DNA of 64,000 bases from an uncultured bacterium (GCA_965651925.1 CBFGUK010000003.1:6801-70800), one strand, 5' to 3'. Numbered from the stretch's first letter, positions 24,271-50,409 are shown. The notes: generated from the letters alone by a model not told the origin. Program-made: numbers and translations.

Positions 24271-25521
24271 TCACTTGCTGCGATAGTGCTCGATCAGCAG
24301 ATCGGCGATCTCGGGCCGCAGGATGCGGGGGTCGGGACGCTGGCCGGAGGTGAGCGCCTTGCGCACCTCGGTGCCGGAGATGATCACCGGCTTCTCGTCC
24401 TTGTGGTTCTCCATCAGATCCACGCGGCCGACGCTGTCGTAGTACGCGGCGAAGCCGATCTTGCACGGCCGGATGTGCAGCTGGCCGTTGAGCTGCGAGA
24501 AGATCTCCTGGGCATCGAAGTCGCCCCAGATCGCCTTGCCGTCGTCATACGGGGCGTCGGCGTGCTTGCGGCCGATGACGATGTCGGTGAAGCCGTGGTT
24601 CTGGCGGTAGATGCTGTGCATCACCGCTTCCTTCGGTCCGCCGTAGAGCATCTTGATGTCGAGGCCGACGAGCTCGAACACCTCGGTGAGATCGTAGCCG
24701 CGCTCGCGCCAGAGCGCCTCGTCCTTGTCGCCCTGCCCGAGCAGCTGCTGGTCGTGCAGGGCGCGGTAGCAGCGCATGCGCACGCGCGCCGGCACGTCGT
24801 CGCCCTTCAGCTCGCCGACGAGCGGATTGAGCACCACGCCGGCGAAGGCGCCCTGGCGCGTGAGCTGCTCGACGCCGGCGACCAGGGCGTACTCGTGGGC
24901 GCGGTGCAGCGGGTTGCGCGTCTGGAAGGCGAGGGCGCGCTCCCAGCGTCGCTCGGCGATCAGCGTACGCGTCTGCCGCGGGCTGAACAGATACTGGCCA
25001 TACTCGGCATCGACCGGCTGCGGCAGCGCCCACAGCTCGCCGCCGATCAGCTTCGTGCGCGGGTCGTCCATGATCATGTGCCCGCCCGGATGATCGGTGC
25101 GGGACGTGCCGTAGAAGCGCTCGACGTGCTTGGCCTTGTCCCAGTCGAACACGCTCGCGACCTGCACGATGCCGACCACGCTGCCCTCGTGCGTCAGCGC
25201 CGCGGCGCGACCGACGCGCAGCGCCTTCGCTTCCTCGTCGGTGACGGGGAACGAGATCGGCGCCGTCCACGCATAGGTGCGGAACCCGTACTCGATGGTG
25301 TCGGTGTCCAGCACGTGATGCCAGGTGTCCTCGTTCATCGGCCCCGAGAGCGGCGACAGGGTGCCGTCGGCGATGCGGTAAACGGTCGCCAGATCGGCGC
25401 GCGACATCTCGATGCGCGGCAGCGACTCGGCCTCGGCGAGGAAGCGGCGGCGGCGCGACAGCGGCACGATGCGCGAGACGGGGACCTCGAGGCCACCGTG
25501 AACGGGTACCAGATCGGGCAT
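24271..25521 (-). CDS. sat: Sulfate adenylyltransferase (ATP sulfurylase, homo-oligomeric Sat type).
   Basis: Internal Met MPDLVPVHGG (residue 17 of the track ORF 24271..25569). QTRNPLHRAHE and GRKHAD motifs of ATP sulfurylase. Confidence 0.9.
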   Translation of the reverse strand: MPDLVPVHGGLEVPVSRIVPLSRRRRFLAEAESLPRIEMSRADLATVYRIADGTLSPLSGPMNEDTWHHVLDTDTIEYGFRTYAWTAPISFPVTDEEAKALRVGRAAALTHEGSVVGIVQVASVFDWDKAKHVERFYGTSRTDHPGGHMIMDDPRTKLIGGELWALPQPVDAEYGQYLFSPRQTRTLIAERRWERALAFQTRNPLHRAHEYALVAGVEQLTRQGAFAGVVLNPLVGELKGDDVPARVRMRCYRALHDQQLLGQGDKDEALWRERGYDLTEVFELVGLDIKMLYGGPKEAVMHSIYRQNHGFTDIVIGRKHADAPYDDGKAIWGDFDAQEIFSQLNGQLHIRPCKIGFAAYYDSVGRVDLMENHKDEKPVIISGTEVRKALTSGQRPDPRILRPEIADLLIEHYRSK

Positions 25522-25790
25522 ATTCGTGAGCTCCTTCGTGTTGGTGGACGGTGCAGGCGCCCGGCGCACCGCGCGTGCGCGCGGCGCATCTCGACCGAGG
25601 GTGAGCGGTGAGCGGGACCTTCGAGTCGCTATGCGACCCCCTTGGGGGAGTCAAGTCCGCACCGATCGCGGTGATGCGGTGCGCGGACGGACCGCATCAC
25701 CGCGCGACCTGGCTGCGGCGCGGGCGACGGATCCGCCCTGTCGGCCGCGGTGCGCCGGTGCCCGCTTGCGAGCGGGCATCGGCGCGAATC

Positions 25791-27164
25791 TCAGCGGCGA
25801 TGCGTGGCCTTCTTGCCGGCGGTGGTGCGCTTGGCGGGCGCGGTGTTGCTGCGGCGCGGCTTCGCTGCCTTCGATGCCGCGCCGCGCTTGGGCTGCTGGA
25901 CCACCCGACTGCGCTTCGCCGGCGCCTTGGCGGAGACGCTCTGCTTGCGCGTCCGCTGCGTCGTGACAGTGCGCTTCGAACGCTTCTTGGCGCTGGCGAC
26001 CTGCACCGGCGCGCCGCCGGGGATGTGCAGGCGCTGGCCGGTGCGCAGCGCCCGCGCCCGCGCGATGCCGTTGGCACGCTGCAGCGCGCGCACCGAGACA
26101 CCGTAGCGACGGGCGATGCGCGACAGGGTTTCGCCGCGGCGGACGCGATGCGTGCGGCCGCGCGTCGACGAGGCATGCCGCACACTTGGCGGCGGCTCGC
26201 GATACGAGGCGAGTGCCAGCGTGAACTGCTCGCGCGTGCCTTCGGGGAGGCGGATCGGATAGCCGTCGGGCGGCACCATGCCGCGGCGCAGCGCCGGATT
26301 GAGCTCCTTGATGGTGTCGAGATCGCTGCCCGAGAGCTGGGCCACGGCCTTCAGCGAGATCGGGCGCGTCACCTCGATGACGTCGAACCGGCGCTCCGGG
26401 CTGTCCGGAATCTCGATGCCGTACTGCCGGGCCTCGCGCGCCACCTGCATCGCGGCGAGCACCTTGGGCACGTATTCCGAGGTTTCCGACGGCAGGAAGC
26501 CGCGCTCGCGCATCTCCCAGAACGTGTCGCAGCCGCGCTTGTTCTGGATGCGCTCGATGTTGCCTTCGCCGGTGTTGTACGCGGCGAGCGCGAGGTGCCA
26601 GTCGCCGAAGCGGTCGTAGAGATCGCGCAGGTAGCGCGCCGCGGCGCGCGTCGCCTTCTCCGGATCGCGGCGCTCGTCGACGTAGCCGTCGATGCGCAGC
26701 CCGTAGCGCTTGCCGGTGCCGCGGATGAACTGCCACGGTCCGACCGCGCCCGCGTGCGAGGTCGCGTGCAGGCTGTAGCCGCTCTCGACGATCGGGACCC
26801 CGTACGCGAACTCGGGCGGCACGCCCTCTTCGCGCAGCGTCGACTGCATGCGCGGCAGGTACTTGCTGCCGCGCTCGAGCGCGCGCTCCAGCGTCGGCCG
26901 CATCCGTCCCTGATAGGCTTCGACCAGATCGAGCACGCGCGGGTGCTCGACATCGAGCTCGGGCAGCGTGGCGTCCGGCGGGACCGCCGTGAGGTCGTCG
27001 GCGAGCTCGAGCCCGACGGCGACCTCAGGAAGGACAGTTGCCGGTGTACCTCCCGCTGATGCGACCGGTTGCACCGGTCGCCGGCTGCTCGCGCAGCCGG
27101 AAATGGCCCAGACGCACAGGAGCACTCCCAGGGCCACGATAGGTCGCTGATTCGCAGCGCGCAT
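25791..27164 (-). CDS. Membrane-bound lytic murein transglycosylase (MltD-like): SLT domain plus LysM, lipoprotein.
   Basis: Internal Met MRAANQRPIVALGVLLCVWAISGCAS (lipobox). The upstream part of the track ORF is junk. SLT motifs ESGYSLHATSHAGAVGPWQF and AYNTGEGN. LysM HRVRRGETLSRIARRYGVSVRALQRAN. Lys/Ala/Pro-rich C-terminal tail. Confidence 0.8.
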   Translation of the reverse strand: MRAANQRPIVALGVLLCVWAISGCASSRRPVQPVASAGGTPATVLPEVAVGLELADDLTAVPPDATLPELDVEHPRVLDLVEAYQGRMRPTLERALERGSKYLPRMQSTLREEGVPPEFAYGVPIVESGYSLHATSHAGAVGPWQFIRGTGKRYGLRIDGYVDERRDPEKATRAAARYLRDLYDRFGDWHLALAAYNTGEGNIERIQNKRGCDTFWEMRERGFLPSETSEYVPKVLAAMQVAREARQYGIEIPDSPERRFDVIEVTRPISLKAVAQLSGSDLDTIKELNPALRRGMVPPDGYPIRLPEGTREQFTLALASYREPPPSVRHASSTRGRTHRVRRGETLSRIARRYGVSVRALQRANGIARARALRTGQRLHIPGGAPVQVASAKKRSKRTVTTQRTRKQSVSAKAPAKRSRVVQQPKRGAASKAAKPRRSNTAPAKRTTAGKKATHRR

Positions 27165-27417
27165 AGGTTCCTCCCTCCTGCCAGCCCGGCTGCCTGGGTG
27201 GGGAAGAGCCAGAGGCGCCCCAAGGCAACCGAGACGTCGCGACCTGCTGCGACGTCTGTCCAACCACCCGTGACGTACCCGCCGTTGCGGGCGTCACCTG
27301 CCTCACTCCATCATCAAACATCGTGCGCCCCGCTCCCGCGGGGCGCTCCTCGGTACCATGAAGGTTTTGCCGAGAGCAACCCGTTTGTGGGTTGGCGTCA
27401 GGAATTTGACGCGGCCG

Positions 27418-28416
27418 CTAGCGCGACCGGGCGACGGCGAGTTGCGCGGCGAGCTGCAGGGCGGCGGTCATGCTGCGCGCATCGGCGCGGCCGCTGCCGG
27501 CGATGTCGTGCGCGGTGCCGTGATCGGGCGAGGTGCGGATCACCGGCAGGCCGGCGGTGAAATTCACGCCGTCGGCGAAGTGCAGGAGCTTGAACGGGGC
27601 GAGCCCCTGGTCGTGGTACATGCACACGACGGCGTCGAAGCGGCCGGCCTGCGCGTGCGGGAAGGCGCTGTCGGCGGCGAGCGGGCCGACGGCGTCGATG
27701 CCGCGGCGGCGGGCGCGGCGCACGGCGGGGGCGATCACCTCCGCATCCTCTTTGCCGAAGACCCCCTGCTCGCCGGCGTGCGGATTGAGGCCGGCGATGC
27801 CGAGGCGCGGGTGGCGGATGGCGAACCGCTCGCGCAACGCTCGCGCGGTGATGACGATCGTGTCGAGCACGCCGGCCGTGGTAATCGCATCAGGAACGTC
27901 GCGCAGCGCGAGATGCGTCGTGACCAGCGCGACGCGCAGCGTGCGGCCGACCATCATCATGCGCACCGGCGCGCCGCCGCAGGTGGCGGCGAGCAGCTCG
28001 GTGTGGCCGGTCGCGCCGACGCCGGCGGCGGCGAGATTGGCCTTGCTGATCGGCGCCGTGGCGAGGGCGTCGGCGACGCCGCTGCGCACCAGCGCGAGCG
28101 CGGCGAGAATCGCGTCATACGCGGCGCGGCCGCCGGCTGCGGTCGGCCGGCCGGGCCGGCGTTCACGCGGGCGCAGGGCGGCGACGGCATGGACCGCCAG
28201 CGCATCGCGCGGCAGCGGCGTCGGCGGTGCCCAGGTGGCGAAGCGCAGCGGCAGCCGGAGCTGGCGCGCGGTGTCGGCGTAGACGGCCGGATCGCCGACG
28301 AGGATCGGCGCCAGCGCGGCGCGCAGGGCGCGGCTGCGCAGCGCGACGAGCGTGACCTCGGGCCCGATGCCGGTCGGATCGCCCATCGAGATGGCGACCC
28401 GCGGCGGGCGCCTCAC
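27418..28416 (-). CDS. pdxA: 4-hydroxythreonine-4-phosphate dehydrogenase (PdxA).
   Basis: 332 aa. VAISMGDPTGIGPE N-terminus, metal-binding His residues (GHTE, NPHAGE) and VCMYHDQGL. The GTGA-type junction overlaps the upstream gene stop at 28413-28416, matching the SurA-PdxA synteny of proteobacteria. Confidence 0.9.
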   Translation of the reverse strand: MRRPPRVAISMGDPTGIGPEVTLVALRSRALRAALAPILVGDPAVYADTARQLRLPLRFATWAPPTPLPRDALAVHAVAALRPRERRPGRPTAAGGRAAYDAILAALALVRSGVADALATAPISKANLAAAGVGATGHTELLAATCGGAPVRMMMVGRTLRVALVTTHLALRDVPDAITTAGVLDTIVITARALRERFAIRHPRLGIAGLNPHAGEQGVFGKEDAEVIAPAVRRARRRGIDAVGPLAADSAFPHAQAGRFDAVVCMYHDQGLAPFKLLHFADGVNFTAGLPVIRTSPDHGTAHDIAGSGRADARSMTAALQLAAQLAVARSR

Positions 28417-30260
28417 GGCAGAATCTCCACCACGTGCCGCTGGCGCAGATCCTCCTTCAACCAGCGCGCATACCGCTCCTCGAGCGCCTTCGCGTACAGC
28501 TGTTCCTTGATCTCCTCACGCGCCTCGTCGGACAGCTCCGGCTGCTCGTCGCTGCCGAGCCGGGCATCGAGGCGGATGATGTGGATCGCGGTGTCGGTGC
28601 GCACCGGCTCGCTGTGCTCGCCGGGATCGAGGTCGGCCACCGCCGCCTCGAGCTCGTCGCGCATCTCACCCGCGCGGAACGTGCCGAGTTTGCCGCCGCC
28701 CGCCGCCGCCGCGTCCTGGGACTCCTGCCGCGCCAGCTCGGCGAAATTCGCGCCCGCCGCGAGCTGCGCGTGCAGCGCGGCGGCACGCGCCTCGATCGCG
28801 GCGACCTCCTCCGCACTCGCGCCGGGCGGGATCTGCAGGACGATGTGCGAGATCTCCACCTGTTCCGCCGCCGTGGCGCTCACGTCCCCGCCCGACTGTT
28901 CCTGCTGGAAGCGGGCGATCTCCTCGGGCGAGACGCTCACCTTGCCGCGGATCTCCCGGTTGATCAGCTGGGCGCGCTCCAGCTCCTCGCGGATCTGGGC
29001 GCGGTAGCGCTCGCGGGTCATGCCCTGCTGGGCGAGCGCGGCATCGAGCTGCTCGTCCGTGAGGTTGTTGCGCTGGCGGATGTTGGCGACGTAGCGATCG
29101 ATCTCCTCGTCGGAGATGACGATGCCCTGCGCCTCGACTTCCTTGGCGAGGATGCGCTGCGTGATCAGCACGTCGAGCACGCCGGCGCGGTCGGCCAGCG
29201 CCGCCTGCGCCAGGCGCGGATCGCTGTTCGCGAACTGCATCAGCTCGAGCGAGGTGATCGGGTCGCCGTCGACCAGGGCGAGGATGCGGTCGACGACCGT
29301 GCCGCTGCGGGCGACGGGCTGTTCGTAGGCGCCGATGTCGCAGCGCGGGCCGGCCGGCCGGCGGATGCCGCGCTGATCGACGCTGAGCACGCGACCCGTC
29401 TCCGGATCGCTGCAGCCGGCGGGATCGCCGGCATCGATGGCCGGGCTGCCGCCGGTCAGCGCGGCGGTCGCCGTCGGTCCGCCGTTCGCGGCCAGCGGCA
29501 GCAGGCGCACGTCCTGCGTGTGCAGGTCGCCCGGTTCGGCGAACGCGCAGGATTCGTCGTCGACGAGGTTGTGGCCCGCCGACGTCACGGCGCCGTGGCA
29601 GGCGCGCAGATTGCCGGCGAGCAGCGTGTTCGTCAGCCGCGCGCTCGCGCCCTCGATCTGCACGCCGATGCCGCGGTTGTGTGCCACCGTGCAGCTGGCG
29701 AGCTCGACCGCGCCATCGGTGGCGCGCACGCCCGCGCCGCCGTTGTCGGCCACGGTCGAGTTGATGCAGCGCACGGTGGTGCCGTCACTCTCGATGCCCG
29801 GCCCGGCATTGCCGGCGACGAGGGAGCGGGAGAGAGTGAGGCGGCCGCGTTCGACCAGGACGCCCGCGGCGCCGCTGTCGCGCACCGCGACCTCGAGCAG
29901 CGTGACGCGGCCGCGCTCCACGGTGACGGTCGCCTCGCGGCCGCCGCTGATCGTCAGCCCGCTGATGGACACCGTGCCGCCGCTGCGCACGACGATCTCG
30001 CCGCTGCCGCGCAGGGTGACGCGATCGGCGCCTGGCCCGCGCACGGTCAGCGTGCCGAACACCTCGATCGGATCGTCGACGGCGATCGTGCCGCGGACGT
30101 CGCTGGCGAAGACGATCGTGTCGCCCTCCTCGGCTTCCTCGACCGCCTCGCGCAGCGATCCTTCGCCGTCGGCCTCGGTGTTGCGGACGGTGTGAATCGC
30201 CGCGCCGGCGGGACCGGCGACGAGCAGGACGAGGAGCAGCAGGACGGGGGCGCGCTTCAT
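28413..30260 (-). CDS. surA: Fusion protein: signal peptide, then a right-handed beta-helix domain of the CSLREA/choice-of-anchor-Q type, then a SurA-like chaperone (SurA N-domain plus parvulin PPIase).
   Basis: Internal Met MKRAPVLLLLVLLVAGPAGA of the 1497-aa track ORF; its upstream 880 aa are antisense to mfd. Residues 20-315: GSLREAVEEAEEGDTIVF, PbH1-like repeats (AGNAGPGIE, ADNGGAGVR, AHNRGIGVQ), then LLPLAANGGPTATAALTGGSPAIDAGD...DQRGIRRPAGPRCDIGAYE. It then runs without a stop into VVDRILALVDGDPITSLEL... (SurA N-terminal chaperone domain) and a PpiC parvulin domain (ISHIVLQIP...GGGKLGTFRAGEM). 615 aa. Confidence 0.7.
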   Translation of the reverse strand: MKRAPVLLLLVLLVAGPAGAAIHTVRNTEADGEGSLREAVEEAEEGDTIVFASDVRGTIAVDDPIEVFGTLTVRGPGADRVTLRGSGEIVVRSGGTVSISGLTISGGREATVTVERGRVTLLEVAVRDSGAAGVLVERGRLTLSRSLVAGNAGPGIESDGTTVRCINSTVADNGGAGVRATDGAVELASCTVAHNRGIGVQIEGASARLTNTLLAGNLRACHGAVTSAGHNLVDDESCAFAEPGDLHTQDVRLLPLAANGGPTATAALTGGSPAIDAGDPAGCSDPETGRVLSVDQRGIRRPAGPRCDIGAYEQPVARSGTVVDRILALVDGDPITSLELMQFANSDPRLAQAALADRAGVLDVLITQRILAKEVEAQGIVISDEEIDRYVANIRQRNNLTDEQLDAALAQQGMTRERYRAQIREELERAQLINREIRGKVSVSPEEIARFQQEQSGGDVSATAAEQVEISHIVLQIPPGASAEEVAAIEARAAALHAQLAAGANFAELARQESQDAAAAGGGKLGTFRAGEMRDELEAAVADLDPGEHSEPVRTDTAIHIIRLDARLGSDEQPELSDEAREEIKEQLYAKALEERYARWLKEDLRQRHVVEILP

Positions 30261-30382
30261 CGGCCGTGCCCTACCACAGAATGTCGCGCTGGTGGACCGC
30301 TGCGGCGAGCCGCGGCCGCGCGTGGGGGCCTGGGCGGGTCGCGCCGCCGCGTCCTCGGTGCGGCGGAGACGCCGGCGCCCGC

Positions 30383-33300
30383 TCAGCGTACCGCCGTCTG
30401 CGGCGGCGCCCCGGATGCGGTGAGCGGCTGCTGCACCTCGCGCAGCACGCCCTGGATCTCCTGCACGAGGCCATCCCAGTCGGTGTGGCGCGGCGTGAAG
30501 CTGAGCTGGAAGTCGGCCGAGAGACGGAAGCGGCCCTTGCTGCGCTGCACGAGCGCGACGAGCTGATCGACCTCGACCGGCGCCTCGGGGTGGAACGTCA
30601 GCGTCACCGAGCCCTGGCGCAGGATGGCGCGCACGATCATGCACGCCTTCAGCACCCGGCGCAGATCCATGATGCGCAGGAAGCTGTCGACCAGCGGCGG
30701 AATCGGGCCGTAGCGCTCGCGCAGCTCGGTGGCGATCTCCTCGAGCTCCGGGGTGCCGCGCGTGTTCGCCAGCCGGCGGTAGAAGACGAGCCGCTGGTTC
30801 TCGTCGGGGATGTACGAGTCGGGGATGTAGGCCGGGAAGCCGAGCTGGATCTCCGGCTCGACGTCGATCGCGCGGCGCTGGCCGCGCAGCTCCATCACCG
30901 CCTCCTCCATCATCTGCGTGTAGAGCTCGAACCCGACGGCGCTGATCTGTCCCGACTGCTGCTTGCCGAGCAGGTTGCCGGCGCCGCGGATCTCGAGATC
31001 GTGCGCCGCGAGCTTGAAGCCGCCGCCGAGGTCGTCGAGCTCCTGCAGCACGCGCAGGCGCTTCTGCGCGTCCTTGGTGATCAGGTGCTCGCCGGGAATC
31101 ATCAGGTACGCGTAGGCGCGTTCGTGCGACCGGCCGACGCGGCCGCGCAGCTGGTAGAGCTGCGCGAGGCCGAAGTGGTCGGCGCGGTTGATGATGATCG
31201 TGTTCGCGTTCGGGATGTCGATGCCCGACTCGATGATCGTCGAGCACACCAGCACGTCGACCTCGCGCTGCATGAACTGCAGCATGACCTTCTCGAGCTC
31301 GCGCTCGTGCATCTGGCCGTGCGCGACGGCGAAGCGCGCCTCGGGGACGATGGTGTGCAGGTGGCGTGCCATCAGCTCGATGTTCTCGACCACGTTGTGC
31401 ACGAAGAACACCTGCCCCTGCCGGCCGAGCTCGCGGCGGATCGCATCGCGGATGACGTCGTCGTCGAAGCGCGTGACGTAGGTGCGCACGGCGAGGCGGT
31501 CGACCGGCGGTGTCTCGATCACGCTCAGGTCGCGGATGCCGGTGAGCGACATCTGCAGCGTGCGCGGGATCGGCGTCGCGGTCATCGCCATGACGTCGAC
31601 CAGCGCGCGCAGCTGCTTGATCTTCTCCTTGTGCTTGACGCCGAAGCGGTGCTCCTCGTCGATGACGAGCAGCCCGAGCTGCTTGAACCGCACGTCGTCC
31701 TGCAGCAGGCGGTGCGTGCCGATGACGATGTCGACGGCGCCGCTCGCCAGCCCGCGCAGCACCTCGCGCTGCTGCGCCGCGGTCTGGAAGCGCGACAGCT
31801 GCTCGACGCGCACCGGGTAGCCCTCGCAGCGCCGGCGGAACGTGACGAAGTGCTGCTGCGCGAGCACGGTGGTCGGCACGAGCACGGCGACCTGACGGCC
31901 GTCCATGACGGCGAGGAACGCGGCGCGCAGCGCCACCTCGGTCTTGCCGTACCCGACGTCGCCGCAGATCAGGCGGTCCATCGGCTTGTCGCGCGCCAGG
32001 TCGGCCATGACGTCGTCGATCGCCTGCTTCTGGTCGGGCGTCTCCTCGAACGGGAAGGCGGCCTCGAACTCGCGGAAGTAGTTGTCCGGCGCGACGTAGG
32101 CGCGGCGCGCATCGATCTCGCGGGCGGCGTGGACGTCGAGCAGCTCCCTGGCCATGGCGAGGATCGACTCGCGCGTGCGCGCCTTGACCTTCTCCCAGCT
32201 CGCGCCGCCGAGCTTGTCGAGCGTCGGCGCGCTGCCTTCGGCACCGACGTACTTCTGCACCAGGCTGATGCGGTCGACCGGCAGGTAGAGGCGGTCGCCG
32301 CCGGCGTACTCGAGGTGCAGGTAGTCGCCCTCGGTGCCGGCGACCTGGAGGTGACGCAGGCCGCGGTAGATGCCGACGCCGTGGTCGAGGTGGACGACGT
32401 AATCCTCGGGCTTGAGCTCGGAGAGGCTCTGCAGGAGCTGCGAGACCGACACACGGCGGGCGGCGCGGCGCCGGGCTTCGCCGAACACGTCCGCCTCGGT
32501 GACCACCGCGAGGCCATCCTCGGGGACGCGGAAGCCCTCGCTCAGGTGGCCGAGGAGGATGTCGACGCGCGGCGGGCCGCCGGCACGCGGCTCGGCGACG
32601 ACCTCGCTGAACGGGCGCGCGCCGACGCTCGCGCGGATCTCGTTCGTTTCCAGCAGGCGGGCGAGGCGTTGCGCCTGTGGCTCGGTGCCGGCGACGAACA
32701 CGAGGCGCTGCCCGTCGGCCTGCCAGGCGCGCACCTGCTCGGCGACCGGCGCGAAGCTCACCTCGTGCCGCTGGTGCGTGCGCGCGGCACGCAGGTCGGC
32801 GGTCGAGAACGACTGCACCGAGAAGCGCGTGTCGCTCGGGTCGGCGGCGAGCAGATCGAGCATCTCGAGCTCGAGCCGGGGTCGCGTCGCGAGCGCCGCG
32901 CGCCACGCGGCGGGTGTCAGGTACAGCGTGTCCGGTGGCGGCAGGAAGCGGTGCTCGGCGAGCCGCTCGGCGGCACGCCGCTCGACCAGCGCCGCGAAGC
33001 GCTCGAGCTGCGCGTCGACCTCGCCCGCCTGATCGATGCAGACCAGGCAGTCGGCGGGCAGGTAGTCCCAGACGGTGTCGAGTCGCGGATGGAAGTACGG
33101 CAGGCAGAACTCGACGCCGGGGAACAGCAGCCCGCTCGCCAGCCCGTCCATGATGATCGCGCGCTCGTCACGCAGCAGCTCGAGGTCGAGCGCGCGCATC
33201 TCGATCGTGCGCGCGATCTCCGGGCGCTGCCCGGCGGTCGGGTCGAATTCGCGCATCGGCAGGACGAGCAGCTCGGCCTGCGCGCCGGCGAGGCGCTGGC

Positions 33301-33955
33301 TGACGGGATCGAACGCGTGCATCGCCTCGATCTGATCGCCGAACAGCTGCAGGCGCAGCGGCTGCGGGTGCGCGGGCGGGAAGATGTCGACGATGCCGCC
33401 GCGCACGGTGAAGTCGCCGCGGTCCTCGACCAGCGGCACGCGCCGGTAGCCCCAGGAGACGAGCTGCGCGGCGACCGCGTCGCGGTCGATCTCCTCGCCC
33501 TCGACCAGGTACAGGTACTGGCTGGCGAACGGATCACGCGGCGGCACGCGCTGCAGCAGGGCCTCGGCGGTCGTGACGATGATCGGGTGGCGGCTCTGGC
33601 GCAGGTGGTAGAGGCCCTCGATGCGCGCCGCGACGACGTCGGGCGTCGGCGACAGATCCTCGAACGGCGTCACTTCCCAGCCCGGCAGATAGTGCACGCG
33701 GCGGGCGAACGGCGCGACGTCGTCCGGCTCGCCGAGGCAGAAGCGCAGGTCGCCGGCGAGGCGCTCGGCCTCCTTGCCGCCGGGCGCGATGATCAGCGCC
33801 GGACGCGGCGCCGCCTGGAGCAGGCGGTACAGGAAATAGGCGCGGGCGCCTCCCTTGAGGCCCTGAACGCGCCACTCGGCGGCGCCCGGCCGCGCGAGAC
33901 CGGCGGCCAGTGCGCGCAGAGCGGGCTCCCAGGTTCTGGCTGCGGGAAGGCTCAT
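30383..33955 (-). CDS. mfd: Transcription-repair coupling factor Mfd.
   Basis: Internal Met [11 protein letters not shown] of the track ORF 30383..34198. UvrB-homology N-domain, RNAP-interacting domain, DEAD-like helicase ([19 protein letters not shown]), TRG motif region. 1190 aa. Confidence 0.95.
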
Positions 33956-34070
33956 GGACGCGGTGAACCTCTCCCGATACCAGCCGTCATGGACCGCAAC
34001 AACGGCACCCGGCCACACGGGCTGCCGGGAGCGCGCCGGCGCCCGCCGAGGCGCCGGCGGAACGTGCCCC

Positions 34071-34490
34071 TCACTCCCCGCTGGCGCGGTTGGCGCGGCG
34101 GAACGCCTTGTACACCTCGACGACGGTCTCGCGCTGCTGCTCGGTGAGGTGCGGGTCGCGGCGCAGCTCGCGCACCGCATCCGACTCGTCGACCTCACGC
34201 GGATCGAGGACCCCGGCCTGCAGATAGAGCGTCTCGGCCGACAGCCGCAGCGCCCCGGCGAGGGTCTGCAGGATCGCCTGGCTGGGATTCTTCAGCCCGC
34301 CCTCGATCTCCTTCAGCACGGCGCCGGAAATGCCGCTGCGTTCGATGATCTTGCGCAGCGAGATGTCGGCGAGGTTGCGCTGGCGGCTCAGGTAGTCGCT
34401 GAGCGACGACTGGCGCGGGCGCTGCGCGGGTTCGGGAACGGCGGCGGCCTCCGGTCGCGGTGCTGCGGGCGGTTTCCGCTTGCGCGCCAT
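34071..34490 (-). CDS. XRE-family helix-turn-helix transcriptional regulator.
   Basis: 139 aa. HTH_3-like segment ISLRKIIERSGISGAVLKEIEGGLKNPSQAILQTLAGAL. Divergent from the PLP enzyme gene. Confidence 0.7.
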   Translation of the reverse strand: MARKRKPPAAPRPEAAAVPEPAQRPRQSSLSDYLSRQRNLADISLRKIIERSGISGAVLKEIEGGLKNPSQAILQTLAGALRLSAETLYLQAGVLDPREVDESDAVRELRRDPHLTEQQRETVVEVYKAFRRANRASGE

Positions 34491-46510: not shown

Positions 46511-46770
46511 GCCCGCGGCCGACGGCGCCACCCCGCGCCCCTGCCGCCGCCGATGCCGGGGACGCGACGCGCTCCCGGCTGCCCCTGCAGACGTGGCCCC
46601 GGCGCGAACACGCGCCTCCGGCCGAGTTTCGCGTTGACTTGTCGCCAGGCGTCTCGCTAGTCGTCCTCACGGTCATCTGACAATTGCTGCATCGGCTCGT
46701 CCCCGGGGGGGCGGCGGGTCGAAGCCCGTGCGCGGCGCGCCGGGTTGGCGTGCCGTCGGGGGAGGAAGGC

Positions 46771-49700
46771 ATGACGCTGGCGGCGAAGAACGCGAGGGCC
46801 TGCGGGTGTGCCCGGATTCGTTCGGGCCTCGTCCGGCTGACCGTCGTTGCGCTTGCGGCCCAGATCGGCGGGCTCGGCCCCGCCGCGGCGGCGCCCCCGG
46901 CGCTGACGACCAGCTCGAGCGCGGTGGCGTCCGCGACCTGTGGCGGCGCACAGGTCACCGTGGGTGTTCACGGCGTCGGTGATCCGGTCACGCAGCGCCG
47001 CCCGCTCGACGTCATGATCGTCTTCGACCGCTCCGGTTCGATGGACGATGCGTGGTGGTTGCCGCCGCAGCCGCTCACCGATGCGAAGACCGGAGCCAGG
47101 GTGCTGGTCGACTCGCTCAGCGCTACGGAGGATCGCGCCGGCCTCACGTCCTTCTCCGACACCGGGACGCTCAACCGCGGCCTGACGTCCAATTTCACCT
47201 CGGTGAAGAGCGCCATCGACGGGCTCTGGGCGCTCGGCGCGACGAACATGGCGCGCGGCATCCAGACCGGCCAGACGGAGCTCGCGGCCAACGGCCGCAG
47301 TACGCCGGCGGTGCGCGTCATGGTCGTGCTCGGTGACGGCGTGCCCACCCGCCGTCTGAACGGGAGCTCGTGCTCGAACACGCCCAGTGCACCGAACGGC
47401 TGCACGCAGGACGCGGTCGCGCAGGCGGCGGCGGCCAAGGCTGCCGGCACGGTGATCTTCACGATCGGCCTGAACCTGACGAACCTGCCGTTTGCGACCG
47501 AGGCGGTGGCGCGCAGCACGCTGCAGGACATCGCCTCCACGCCGGACGCCTACTTCGAGTCGCCGACCTCTGCCGAGCTGGCCGGCATCTTCGCGCAGAT
47601 CGGCGAGATCGTCACGACCCTCGCCGGCTCGGACGTCGTGCTCACGCACGTGCTGCCGGGCGGGGTGTCGTACGTCGGCGGCTCAGCCGTCCCGGCCCCG
47701 AGTGTGGTGAGCGGCCAGACGCTGGTGTGGAATCTCGGCCTGCTGAACATCGGCAGCAGCACGGGGGTGACGTTCACCGTCCACATTGCGGACGCGACTC
47801 CGGGTCAGCCGGTGGTCGCGCCGGGCAGCGGCGTCGACTACCTCGACTACCAGGGAGAGGCCGCGACGGTTGCCGTGCCGCCGGCCGCGGTGAGCGTCGT
47901 TCCCTGCGCGACGGCGACGCCCTCATTGACCGGGACGGCGACGCGCACGCACACGCCGGGACCGACGAACACCCCGACGCACACCGGCACGCCGACGCGC
48001 ACGAGTACGCCCGCGGCGACGGCGACCGCGACCCACACCCCGGCGCCGTTCTGCGGCGATGGGGTGATCGATCCCGGCGAGAGCTGTGATGACGGCAACG
48101 GCTTCGACGGCGATGGATGCGAGTCGGACTGCACCCCATCGGCCGCGTGCGCGTTCGGCCACGACGGCGTCGAGCGGTTCGTCGGCGCATGCGGCGCACC
48201 GAGCCATGCGAGCATCCAGGCGGCGGTGGACGCCGCAGCCGACGGCGACACGATCACCGTCTGCCCGGGCGCGTACACCGAACAGGTGCAGGTCACGCGC
48301 GAGGTGCACCTCCGCGCCGCGGAACCCGGGACGGTGCTGGTGGAGACGAACGGGACGGCGTTCGACCTGCAGCGCAGTGGCATCACGATCGAGGGGCTGG
48401 TGATCACCGCGACCGGCGGCACGGCGGTGACCACCGCGGCGCTGTGTCCGCTCGGCCAGATGACGTGCGCGGCGCCGGATCACGGATCGAAGCTGCGCAT
48501 CGCGAACAACACGATCTCCGGCAGCGTGCTCGGCATCGGCTGGTCGCTGCGCGTCGATTGCGCAGAGATCGCCGGCAATACGCTCACCGACAACACCACG
48601 CACATCGACATCCGGCAGCAGGATGGCCCGTCGGCGGTGCTGGTCGGCATCACCGGCAACCAGGTGTCCCTCGGGGGGACGTCTGGCGCGGCGGTGACGC
48701 TCGCCGGCATCGGCGCGACCATTGCCGCAAACACCATTGCCAGCTCGAGCACGGCCGGGCTCGTGCTGGCGGCGATGAGCGACGGGAGCCAGGTGATCGA
48801 GAACGCCCTTGCCGGCAACGCCGGTGACGGCATCACGTTGCGCTCGGGCGCAAGCGCGGTGCGGGTGCGCGACAACAACATCACCGACAACGGCGTCGGC
48901 CTCGGCAACGAATCCGGCGGGCTGGTCGACGCGCGCGAGAACTGGTGGGATTCGCAGACCGGGCCGAGCGGCGTGACGTGGCCGAATCCCGACCCCGGAC
49001 CGCCGCTGACCGGCAGCGGTGACCTGCTCGTCAACCGCTCGGGCAGCACGACGTTCATCGAGTTCCTGTGCAAACCCTTCCCGCAGGGCTTCCCCAGCGT
49101 GCTCGGGCAATGCGGCACGGAAGTGGCGGAGCTGCGCCAGCTCCTGCCGGGTCGCGCGCCGGATCTCGATCCGTTCGGTCGCTACATCGTGTTCGAATCG
49201 ACGGCCGACATGGATGTCGACGGGCGCACCGCGTACAGCAACGGCGACGCCAGCCAGGAGATCTTCCTGCTGAACCGGCGGCCGCGGAAGCCGCTGATCG
49301 GCGTCTGCCTCGGCGGGCTCGTGCCGTGCGACTTCCGCAATCTCGGCACCTGCACGCCGTGCCGGGGCAGGAAGGAGTGCCCGGGAGATCCGAGCGCCGA
49401 TCCGATCGTCCTGAATGGCGAGTGCGTCGTCGTCACGCAGCTCACCAACGGGCACGGGGAGACGCAGAGTCGCGGGCCGCGGCTGACCGGGCTCGCCAAG
49501 CACGTGGTGTTCGACTCGGACAACCAGCAGGACGGGAACCCCGACGGGTCACGCGAGATCCTGCGCTGGAGCCGGCCGTCGTTCGAGAAGTCCGAGCCGC
49601 CGCTGGCGTCGTACTCGCACGGCACCGCCGACGAGCACTACCAGAACCCGGCGCCGGCGCTGAACGGCAAGTACATCGCGGTCGAATCGAACGCGAACCC

Positions 49701-50409
49701 CACCGGACACAATGCCGACGGCAATATCGAGATCTTCGTGTACAAGCCGCGCAGCGGCGAGTGGCTGCAGCTCACCCACACGCTGCCGCCGGTCGAGAAT
49801 CGCCGTCCCGCGACGGTCGACGGCCGCCGCATCATCTTCGATTCGACCGCCAATCTGCACAACGACCAGAAGGTGCCGGGGGTCAGCAACGCCGACGGCA
49901 ACCGCGAGCTGTTCATGGCGCGCGTCAAGACCGGCGGGATCGAAATCCGGCAGATCACCGACACCCTCGCGCCGGCCGACACGCACGCCGGCAGCGTCGA
50001 TGCGAACAGTGCGCTGGTCGCCTTCTCGTCGACCGGTGATCTGACCGGGCAGAACGCCGACGGCAGTCGCGAGATCTTCACCTGGCACCGGCGTACGGGC
50101 CGGTTCGAGCAGCTCACGCACGCGACGGCGGGCGAGAGCACGAATCCCGTCGTCAACCTGAGTCAGCGTTTCGTCGTATTCGAATCCACCGCCGACCTGA
50201 CGTTCAGCGGTGCAACGAACCGCCGCATCTTCCAGTTCGACCGCGCGCGCGGCGAGCTGCTGCTGCTGTCGCGTTCGCGGTTCGGCACCAACCAGACACC
50301 GCGGATCCGCAAGCGGCGCTACGTGGTGTGGGAGTCGACGAGCAATCTCACCGGCAACAATCCGACCGGTGAGCGGGTGATCTACCTGTTCGACCGCAAG
50401 AAGGACTAG
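46771..50409 (+). CDS. Large secreted multidomain protein. Domains in order: vWA, DUF11 (conserved repeat domain), Thr/Pro linker, Myxococcus-type Cys-rich repeat, right-handed parallel beta-helix (PbH1), and a 7-blade PD40 (TolB-like) beta-propeller.
   Basis: Internal Met [34 protein letters not shown] (signal peptide) preceded by GGAGGAAGG. vWA MIDAS DRSGSM...VLGDG. DUF11-like [17 protein letters not shown]...[19 protein letters not shown]. TP-rich linker. [29 protein letters not shown]. NosD-like repeats ([43 protein letters not shown]). Seven repeats of the type [21 protein letters not shown]. 1212 aa. Confidence 0.8.
   Translation: [1212 protein letters not shown]

Follow-up and report, generated by a model that had tools for sequence, protein, structure and literature searches.

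An in-frame fusion of a choice-of-anchor Q beta-helix module to a SurA-type chaperone at the surA-pdxA position in Binatia

The stretch of 64,000 nucleotides analysed here (hereafter the window) comes from an uncultured bacterium and carries, in the position normally occupied by surA, a gene which appears to encode a beta-helix domain followed by a SurA-type chaperone. SurA is a periplasmic protein that brings outer-membrane proteins (OMPs) to the BAM complex for insertion. Is this a genuine single protein, and if so what might a chaperone gain from such an appendage? As the original prediction stated, a signal peptide, a beta-helix/choice-of-anchor Q segment and a SurA-type chaperone lie in one stop-free reading frame of 615 amino acids, which begins with an ATG at position 30,260 of the minus strand (Table 1). 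No alternative start codon is present in the 14 in-frame codons preceding this ATG and the homologues share the same start position. The N-terminus (MKRAPVLLLLVLLVAGPAGAA) reads as a classic n/h/c signal peptide, with the consensus xxxRxxxxxxxxLLxAxPAxA/ATH among homologues (slashes mark putative cleavage sites throughout). It is followed by a beta-helix module of approximately 295 residues with a choice-of-anchor Q end, a linker of 8 residues and a chaperone with a single parvulin domain. Structure prediction of the full-length protein, one of the checks initially proposed, gave two well-modelled folded units with a short, flexible linker between them (pLDDT 91.5, pTM 0.56). An identical protein is present in public collections (P0001). 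A longer ORF of 1497 amino acids was rejected as a high-GC read-through across mfd, a gene that itself lies in another frame.

Table 1. Coordinates of the fusion gene, its domains and its neighbours in the window
Feature	Residues	Coordinates	Strand	Basis
Whole CDS, beta-helix-SurA fusion	615 codons + stop	28413..30260	-	
Signal peptide MKRAPVLLLLVLLVAGPAGA	1-20	30201..30260	-	Sequence and homologue consensus; A-x-A type cleavage region, lipobox Cys absent
N-cap (25-42) and right-handed parallel beta-helix body	21-249	29514..30200	-	PF13229, AF2 pLDDT 96-98, invariant columns, motif table
Choice-of-anchor Q domain (module C-terminal cap)	250-314	29319..29513	-	NCBIfam NF041518
Linker QPVARSGTVVDRI	315-326	29283..29318	-	Alignment to 1m5y/9hg5, column frequencies, AF2
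SurA N-terminal chaperone domain	327-445	28926..29282	-	PF09312, PF13624, Foldseek to 9hg5_F, 2pv3, 1m5y
Single parvulin (PpiC-type) domain	467-570	28551..28862	-	PF00639, column frequencies
C-terminal helix and strand completing SurA core	571-615	28416..28550	-	AF2, phmmer alignment, invariant residues
pdxA (context)		27418..28416	-	PF04166, 347 bits
mfd (context)		30383..34198	-	Ends 122 nt upstream of fusion start

The gene order mfd-surA-pdxA is kept in all 24 comparison loci, wherever the flank is present. In the window, the listed GTG start of the downstream pdxA (28416-28414) overlaps the stop codon of the fusion (28415-28413). In E. coli, too, surA adjoins pdxA, while the upstream neighbour differs, being mfd here and lptD in E. 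coli.

The possibility that a secreted beta-helix gene had been wrongly joined to an ordinary surA, by a frameshift or in assembly, was raised together with the fusion itself. A search for orthologues carrying the same arrangement recovered about 63 full-length homologues (46-80% identity, same Pfam set) from NCBI, JGI, ENA and Logan assemblies, whose contig names indicate different assemblers. They maintain a single frame and a module of 291-300 amino acids, and are always found between mfd and pdxA where flanks are present. Both halves are under similar purifying selection: against a relative at 80% identity, the module gives a dN/dS of 0.35 and the SurA half one of 0.31, and mean identity within the family is 54-70% and 65-69% respectively. 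Moreover, at unfused loci only about 130 bp separate mfd from surA, which leaves no room for a separate upstream gene. An internal start yielding a normal SurA was rejected since neither a signal peptide nor a start context is found before residue 322 (residues 300-322), although unfused orthologues do have one. The one observation in favour of an artefact is a long-read MAG (L010) in which the gene is broken over three frames. However, pdxA and sat next to it are broken too, so that general indel error is the likely cause. The artefact explanation is thus refuted for practical purposes, and the fusion is confirmed as real and conserved. It is nevertheless unusual, as had been supposed: among the best 150 hits of a HMMER search of 1.84 billion representative proteins there is one full-length fused representative, each of the remaining listed hits matching only one half. 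Another candidate for a protein spanning the junction (P0211) was discarded, its extension being an unrelated acidic low-complexity region.

Both motifs quoted in the original prediction were located, GSLREAV at residues 34-40 and LLPLAANGGPT...DQRG.RRP....CDIGAYE at residues 253-313, but only one of the two families named for them holds. Membership of choice-of-anchor Q is clear, the NF041518 model being matched over positions 1-57 of 58 with 74.8 bits (cut-off 25). In contrast, the CSLREA_Nterm model TIGR04214 (cut-off 25 bits) gave no match even at E<=10, with residues 21-81 or 21-318 as query, while two stand-alone relatives used as positive controls (P0096 and P0098) both match. At residue 34, which corresponds to the Cys of CSLREA, at least 90% of the 63 members have Gly and none has Cys. 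The N-cap helix follows the pattern V25-RNT-x-x-x-G-x-GSLREA. The body matches the Pfam Beta_helix profile (PF13229, residues 89-217, 40.5 bits against a gathering threshold of 25.9), with invariant Asn, Gly and Thr ladder positions and invariant Cys165, 190, 221 and 238. In the C-terminal cap, D295-Q-R297, C283 and C307-D-x-G-A-x-E313 are invariant, and remain so in stand-alone modules. With a pI of ~4.5 the module is acidic; modelled alone with AF2, it is composed of all-beta coils (pLDDT 96.3, pTM 0.94). It has six invariant Cys whereas the SurA half has none (63 homologues), suggesting that the module is extracytoplasmic. According to the NCBIfam naming rationale, choice-of-anchor modules are followed by interchangeable C-terminal sorting, anchoring or localisation devices. 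Here no sorting-signal family from Pfam or NCBIfam follows the choice-of-anchor Q domain; the SurA-like chaperone occupies that place and ends in ...HVVEILP.

The closest relatives of the module are giant secreted choice-of-anchor Q/CSLREA proteins (for example P0121, P0096 and P0080), which are built from the same self-contained unit of ~295 amino acids; one of them (P0121, 2821 amino acids) includes 10 stretches matching the module. Over its full length, residues 23-315, the module aligns with individual repeats of these proteins (34-45% identity), sharing the invariant T..N, DQR and D.G..E columns and two conserved Cys pairs. The giant proteins carry tandem arrays, in which a module is followed by further modules or a sorting signal, whereas the fusion has one copy followed by the chaperone and exhibits an additional invariant Cys pair (165/190). 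Sequence comparison of the module with the PDB returned nothing significant. Among the best matches to solved structures is Rhombotarget A (RbtA) of Acinetobacter baumannii (9CDV/9CDU; Foldseek E 3e-5, TM 0.61-0.65 over the query), at 15% identity. RbtA is a 617-aa cell-surface protein that lacks a chaperone domain and carries, by name and by model, a GlyGly-CTERM sorting signal which is absent from the fusion. The fusion protein is not listed at E<=1 for the Rhombotarget A equivalog TIGR04212, its C-terminus being the SurA tail, while a stand-alone relative (P0096) shows a partial match to the RbtA model along with its CSLREA_Nterm match. The peptide complex 9CDU was considered as a lead to peptide binding and set aside: its peptide is a computationally designed macrocycle and therefore gives no information on a natural ligand. 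Weak NCBIfam hits to CsgH-like, FimI and NosD families lie far below cut-off and were taken as chance or generic beta-helix signal. The structure paper on RbtA gives no biochemical function, and a CSLREA-domain protein has been described as a putative T2SS effector in A. baumannii. More generally, choice-of-anchor Q is unmentioned in the literature found and CSLREA is rare, appearing in passing in one paper; no function is assigned to this large family, RbtA included, in the papers or annotations found.

The C-terminal half is SurA-like rather than a canonical SurA, and in this respect the initial designation stands in part. SurA_N and parvulin profiles score above their cut-offs: PF09312 (49.5 bits against 30.8) and PF13624 (50.7 bits against 27.2), with SurA_N spanning residues 323-428, and Rotamase PF00639 (residues 472-565, 76.7 bits), which identifies the sole parvulin stretch. 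The SurA equivalog NF008038, in contrast, reaches only 110 bits against a cut-off of 394 (model positions 24-278 of 431), and the second parvulin domain of E. coli-type SurA is absent. The parvulin stretch aligns best with P1 of E. coli SurA, P2 contributing only 22 bits. D516 is invariant and H560 is found in 61 of 63 members; the fusion has H472, a position at which 22 of the 63 carry Gln. AF2 models most of this half with pLDDT ~85-97, including a C-terminal helix (578-608) and strand (611-613), and the tail carries invariant Y589...W600...H609. The SurA_N score and a core fold built by packing of the C-terminal helix and strand against the N-domain agree with the SurA-like superfamily. With E. 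coli SurA (1M5Y; BAM-SurA complexes 8PZ1 and 9HG5) it shares the N-domain, parvulin and C-tail core (sequence match E 1e-35), and the Sec signal peptide is a putative further common feature. Foldseek retrieves 9hg5_F (E 4e-15), the P2-less SurA fragment 2pv3 (E 3e-14) and 1m5y, and the phmmer alignment with 2pv3 extends to query residue 300 of 306. PEB4/Cj1289 (3RFW, 3RGC) and LIC12922 (3NRK) share the fold. The nearest counterparts are unfused SurA-like proteins from other Binatia (L011-L023, P0122), with 45-56% identity over residues 316-615, the same single-parvulin layout and the same mfd-surA-pdxA locus, but without the beta-helix module.

Between the two halves, the linker shows a conserved stretch, G320-T-V-V-(N/D)-R-I326, in which G320, V323, R325 and I326 are conserved at 97-100% (63 members), and AF2 confidence falls below 50 at residues 319-321. 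The motif VV(D/N)(K/R)(V/I) opens the mature chaperone in both the fusion and E. coli SurA, residues 322-326 (VVDRI) aligning with E. coli residues 24-28 (VVDKV), part of the strand that binds BamA POTRA-1 by beta-augmentation. Cryo-EM and genetics showed that the first six mature residues of E. coli SurA hand clients to BAM, and removal of residues 23-28 has effects on the OMP proteome similarly severe to those of a surA deletion (PMC11366764). The docking strand is N-terminal in E. coli SurA whereas it is internal in the fusion, behind a folded module of 295 amino acids. A free end is probably not needed for docking, since the SurA chain in a BAM-SurA cryo-EM structure (8pz1_F, 450 aa) seems, from the alignment offset, to carry ~42 extra N-terminal residues. 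Conservation of the linker could equally come from its role in the beta-hairpin of the SurA core, or from a processing site.

The unfused Binatia orthologues give an indication of how the fusion arose. They occupy the same slot, are ~310-330 amino acids long and carry their own signal peptide, which ends directly before VVNRILATVDG. Because these other Binatia keep an unfused SurA-like gene in the slot, the module was inserted between the signal peptide and mature SurA, probably once, in one sub-lineage of uncultured Binatia. The original prediction would have been refuted by absence of the fusion from all relatives; the fusion is absent from sister Binatia lineages at this locus, which indicates a lineage-specific gain rather than counter-evidence. 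In a tree with 45 stand-alone modules, the fused ones group together to the exclusion of all the others (bootstrap 64), and the core fused group is one clade in both the flanking-gene tree and the SurA tree. The common ancestor of all fused sequences obtains 32% support in the SurA tree, the deepest fused lineages being L002/P0068 and P0070, and L002 groups with an unfused clade (B) in the flanking-gene tree. Given this placement, one gain followed by loss and a later gain both fit the trees. Relative to flanking genes, the SurA half evolves ~2.0x as fast in fused pairs and 1.6x as fast in unfused pairs, indicating no strong relaxation. A literature search on SurA in Binatia found nothing relevant.

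We favour, with a probability of roughly 0.6, the interpretation that the gene encodes a working periplasmic SurA-type OMP chaperone, vertically inherited, which brings a rigid, acidic, disulfide-bearing and non-enzymatic rod to BAM. Once exported by Sec and freed of its signal peptide, the protein would use its C-terminal half as SurA does, the N-domain and C-tail core holding unfolded OMPs and the single parvulin domain acting mainly as a chaperone and less as a catalyst. The TVV(N/D)RI segment would add itself by beta-augmentation to the POTRA-1 edge strand of BamA, placing the module within ~8 residues of POTRA-1. There the module would most likely act, without enzymatic activity, as a spacer or as a platform that binds a protein or envelope ligand, and it would give SurA at BAM a second function or a preference for certain clients. 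For a family to which no function is assigned, the role of binding platform is a default guess, and the module may, as originally suggested, adapt SurA to a particular class of clients or to a surface structure. A more speculative and rather doubtful extension treats the internal docking strand as a tether: a rigid beta-helix rod of ~5 nm, positioned at BamA's periplasmic tip, might connect BAM with peptidoglycan or with inner-membrane export machinery, or might template or capture beta-helical passengers or choice-of-anchor-Q clients.

Three other interpretations deserve consideration. The roles of the two halves may be reversed, the module being the payload and the SurA half an anchor that localises it to BAM or the periplasm, with housekeeping SurA supplied by another gene; a canonical SurA could indeed exist elsewhere in the genomes of fused lineages. 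Such an arrangement would suit the position of choice-of-anchor modules ahead of exchangeable localisation devices, one stand-alone relative (P0098) has a PA1041-type peptidoglycan-anchor match after its module, the SurA half is slightly faster against flanking genes when fused, and 35% of members lack the first catalytic-type His. However, the ancestral surA slot is taken by the fusion and contains no unfused copy, the SurA half is no less conserved than the module, and tblastn detected no paralogue of either half, hence no second SurA, within the window; we consider role reversal unlikely. Still less probable, in our estimation, is a polyprotein-like precursor, jointly exported and cut at the linker (..AV-[TSA]-G/TVVNRI..) into a normal SurA and a periplasmic or secreted beta-helix protein. 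A cut before T321/V322 would restore the mature N-terminus of the unfused orthologues (A/VVVNRI), the linker is conserved beyond structural need and stand-alone modules are secreted or surface proteins, but the cut has no known protease motif or precedent, BamA docking and the SurA core hairpin explain the conservation equally well, and keeping the two halves covalently joined throughout a deep clade demands less than a fusion that also needs its own protease.

It is equally improbable that the module acts enzymatically on polysaccharides (as a lyase, epimerase or hydrolase), which would make the protein both an envelope-remodelling enzyme and a chaperone. This idea draws on the right-handed parallel beta-helix fold shared with PL6/PL9 lyases and AlgE epimerases, since the top solved folds include the PL6 alginate lyase 7dmk (TM 0.70 over the query), Pel9A, AlgE epimerases and RbmB, and on a lytic transglycosylase gene two genes downstream of the fusion. 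Yet these matches (12-15% identity, E ~1e-5) are typical of generic beta-helix similarity, and the module has neither a family-level sequence match to these enzymes nor an identified catalytic or Ca-binding set. No enzyme family of Pfam or NCBIfam exceeds its cut-off. The invariant residues of the helix body are restricted to G, N, C, T, S and hydrophobics, none being charged between residues 50 and 240, and aromatic residues average 1.6%. Conserved charged residues cluster in the C-terminal cap, as they do in all choice-of-anchor Q modules. From these sequence features the module is not obviously an enzyme.

A whole Binatia lineage keeps under selection a folded domain of 295 residues directly before the BAM-docking strand. 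This raises the questions of how much steric freedom the BamA POTRA-1/SurA interface tolerates, what might adjoin POTRA-1 and what choice-of-anchor Q/CSLREA modules do. Fused and unfused orthologues at one locus represent a ready-made comparative pair. If the BAM-tethered rod proves true, the protein would be a natural chaperone with a built-in, BAM-localised accessory domain, and a function would be suggested for the choice-of-anchor Q module family.

Scans of the window for promoters and terminators, Rfam families and tRNAs gave nothing relevant to the fusion. The window also encodes a second beta-helix protein (46684-50409), which is VWA/NosD-like and does not belong to choice-of-anchor Q.

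The fusion gene is a single frame of 615 codons with a signal peptide at its front (MKRAPVLLLLVLLVAGPAGAA, of textbook type as judged by sequence), which bears out the uninterrupted in-frame fusion originally predicted. The mechanically defined ORF of the same frame reaches 32906 (1497 aa; 28413-32906, minus strand). Its upstream stretch is a high-GC read-through (GC ~72%, GC3 ~0.9) over the 3' part of mfd, which lies in a different frame. Such an open frame could mislead start codon calling. None of the 14 in-frame codons preceding the ATG at 30260 is a start codon, and the start positions of the homologues agree with this ATG. The expected surA-pdxA synteny is present, and the order mfd, surA, pdxA, SLT/LysM gene, sat is shared by most of the fused Binatia loci and by several unfused ones. 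The SLT/LysM gene is an envelope-related neighbour for which a functional link is conceivable.

Coordinates of the fusion, its neighbouring genes and its domains
Feature	Position	Strand	Remarks
mfd	ends at 30383	-	upstream of fusion
Fusion CDS	28413-30260	-	615 codons from ATG at 30260; stop 28415-28413
pdxA	downstream of fusion	-	PF04166, 347 bits; listed GTG start overlaps fusion stop codon
SLT + LysM lytic transglycosylase	25791-27263	-	after pdxA
ATP sulfurylase (sat)	24271-25569	-	after pdxA and SLT/LysM
Beta_helix	residues 89-217		curated model, above cut-off
choice_anch_Q	residues 250-314		74.8 bits vs cut-off 25
SurA_N	residues 323-428		curated model, above cut-off
Rotamase/parvulin, one copy	residues 472-565		curated model, above cut-off

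All parts of the predicted architecture, a beta-helix followed by a SurA N-domain and a parvulin domain, match curated models above their cut-offs. The two motifs named for the N-terminal segment are found at residues 34-40 (GSLREAV) and 253-313 (LLPLAANGGPT...DQRG.RRP....CDIGAYE). Assignment to the CSLREA/choice-of-anchor Q family holds for its second part only: the window protein passes choice_anch_Q and fails CSLREA_Nterm, and the Cys position of the CSLREA motif is nearly always Gly and never Cys in the 63 aligned members. It also fails the Rhombotarget A (RbtA) model. The N-terminal half belongs both to the right-handed beta-helix family and to that of choice-of-anchor Q domains. The protein falls outside the E. 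coli SurA equivalog family (110 vs 394 bits, one parvulin domain); it is the locus orthologue of single-parvulin SurA-like chaperones and is predicted to work alike.

The protein search retrieved an identical protein (P0001) and ~68 near-full-length clusters with the same Pfam set. These clusters are drawn from NCBI, JGI, ENA and Logan assemblies, and their contig names point to differing assemblers. Sixty-three were aligned, with identity to the window protein ranging from 80% down to 46%. The module keeps a length of 291-300 aa throughout, and the gene order mfd-fusion-pdxA is found at every locus with flanks available. Mean pairwise identity (n=63) is 0.54 in the helix body, 0.70 in the choice-of-anchor Q cap, 0.69 in SurA_N and 0.65 in the parvulin domain. 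The nearest relative with DNA available is L025 (80% aa identity); in that comparison the module has an NG86 dN/dS of 0.35 and the SurA half one of 0.31, so selection maintains both to a like degree. The frameshift or misassembly that the original prediction had entertained is contradicted by the homologues from independent assemblies, the constant module length, the synteny and the dN/dS values; a wrongly joined gene is extremely improbable. One exception is L010 (6001-7844, MAG MFD05442.bin.2.281, 1.5-Mb contig), whose fused gene is broken over three frames. Since the neighbouring pdxA and sulfate adenylyltransferase (sat) genes are likewise fragmented and the MAG derives from long reads, this is probably an indel error and not a pseudogene. 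In the database protein P0078 (652 aa), the C-terminal portion of the fusion seems to continue into pdxA via several frame errors; it was rejected as a genuine SurA-PdxA fusion and put down to assembly or gene calling of poor quality.

When 1.84 billion 50%-identity representatives were searched in full with HMMER, 68,835 matches resulted, of which the best 150 were inspected. These include one full-length fused representative (P0036) and fragments of the same family; each of the others matches one half only. The half-matches are giant proteins of 1,000-6,800 aa with 2-12 module copies and SurA-like proteins of 300-460 aa. Single repeats of the giant proteins align with the module (in P0121, residues 552-862 with query residues 23-315), which indicates that it is a self-contained unit of ~295 residues that moved whole. 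Existing public names are generic ('peptidylprolyl isomerase', 'choice-of-anchor Q domain-containing protein'). Full-text literature searches uncovered nothing about the module-SurA combination or the choice-of-anchor Q module; CSLREA occurs in three papers, in one of which the mention is a passing one. In P0211 (438 aa), a SurA-like protein from another source, an N-terminal, acidic low-complexity stretch of ~130 aa separates the signal peptide from a VDAVVASVDG motif, an unrelated second way of lengthening the same end of SurA.

Some relatives carry the fusion and others do not. When one genome per GTDB species was scanned, 20 loci emerged, most of them under the label Candidatus Binatia or under older or generic names; six carry the full fusion and 14 are unfused and match residues ~316-615 only (45-55% identity). 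The unfused loci hold a SurA-like gene of ~310-330 aa in the same mfd-surA-pdxA slot. Its signal peptide ends right before (A)VVNRILATVDG, the sequence that follows the module in fused proteins. The gap between mfd and surA is only ~130 bp in these loci, so there is no separate beta-helix gene. The mfd+pdxA tree and the SurA-half tree each resolve a core fused clade next to two clades of unfused loci, counted apart from the deepest fused lineage (L002/P0068). The modules of all fused proteins, the divergent P0068 and P0070 among them, group together to the exclusion of 45 stand-alone modules (bootstrap 64); they score ~425 bits with the HMM, and no stand-alone module exceeds 190. The fusion is real, ancient and, among the matches inspected, restricted to this lineage. 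Most simply, one module was captured once, between the signal peptide and mature SurA, and may later have been lost in one unfused clade.

The insertion point is mechanistically sensitive. In a phmmer alignment, window residues 322-326 (VVDRI) correspond to residues 24-28 of E. coli SurA (VVDKV), which places the module junction eight residues before the strand presumed to dock onto BAM. In E. coli SurA, residues 23-28 lack order when the protein is free and pair with an edge strand of BamA POTRA-1 by beta-augmentation, a contact made through the backbone; without them the OMP proteome suffered to about the same extent as after surA deletion (Fenn et al., PMC11366764). Within the fused family G320, V323, R325 and I326 are conserved at 97-100% and T321, V322 and N324 at 83-90%. 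In unfused Binatia proteins this motif comes first after the signal peptide. Docking without a free N-terminus is probably feasible. The SurA chain of a cryo-EM structure (8pz1_F) has 450 residues, and the alignment offset implies ~42 extra N-terminal residues; lengths and offsets suggest that these match the TwinStrep-TEV construct in the methods of PMC11366764.

The full-length structure prediction suggested originally yielded two confidently folded bodies. The AlphaFold2 model (63-sequence alignment) has a mean pLDDT of 91.5 and a pTM of 0.56, with residues 319-321 below 50, and predicts no confident fixed orientation between the bodies; the module modelled alone reaches 96.3 and 0.94, respectively. 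Structures similar to the C-terminal half include E. coli SurA from BAM-SurA complexes (9hg5_F, E 4e-15), SurA without P2 (2pv3), full SurA (1m5y) and the single-parvulin structures of LIC12922, PrsA and PEB4/Cj1289. A sequence search of the module against the PDB found no related entry. Both CSLREA_Nterm and choice_anch_Q find matches in stand-alone relatives of the module, one of which also gives a partial match to the RbtA model. In the RbtA 'peptide complex' the peptide is a designed macrocycle. An A. baumannii CSLREA-domain protein is reported as a putative type II secretion substrate.

Taking as established the architecture, its conservation, the locus orthology with unfused SurA-like genes and the two independently folded units, we propose that the fusion would be exported by Sec and act as a working SurA-type OMP chaperone. 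The docking strand, turned internal, would bring a rigid, probably disulfide-stabilised beta-helix near BamA POTRA-1, where the module may serve as a non-enzymatic binding or spacer platform. Six Cys are invariant in the module (165, 190, 221, 238, 283 and 307) and none in the SurA half; the last four are kept in stand-alone modules too. They fit disulfides in an oxidising compartment, the pairing being suggested by Cys spacing. Cleavage at the conserved linker into two proteins is improbable, and it is likewise doubtful that the SurA half chiefly anchors the module while another SurA does the housekeeping. That the module is an enzyme deserves little credence. Its fold resembles that of PL6 and PL9 lyases, AlgE epimerases and A. 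baumannii RbtA (E ~1e-5, 12-15% identity). In the helix body only G, N, C, T, S and hydrophobic residues are invariant; the charged residues that are conserved (D295-Q-R297, R301, D308, E313 and others) lie together in the C-terminal cap, and all choice-of-anchor Q modules have them. This pattern and the module's acidic, aromatic-poor composition (mean pI 4.5; 1.6% aromatic residues) speak against both a lineage-specific catalytic site and a typical aromatic-lined sugar groove.

The evolutionary rate of the SurA half is ~2.0 times that of the flanking genes in fused-fused pairs and 1.6 times in unfused-unfused pairs (the pairs being non-independent), at most a mild acceleration in which constraint has not collapsed. 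In 22 of 63 members Gln replaces the first active-site His of the parvulin domain, H472, whereas D516 and H560 are retained, so selection seems to favour chaperone structure over catalysis. The same holds for P1 of E. coli SurA.

No tRNA genes and no Rfam families at gathering threshold were found in the 64-kb window. A 1241-aa ORF at 46684-50409 (plus strand), ~16 kb from the fusion, combines VWA, a Cys-rich acidic (myxo_disulf/DUF4215) repeat and a NosD-like right-handed beta-helix, and is a second large beta-helix protein, probably secreted; neither a choice-of-anchor Q match nor tblastn similarity to the SurA-fused module was found for it. In some relatives (L002 9873-11309, L003 9950-11320, L004 6703-8073) a phosphoglucomutase gene separates pdxA from the SLT/LysM gene; the window and most fused loci lack it there.
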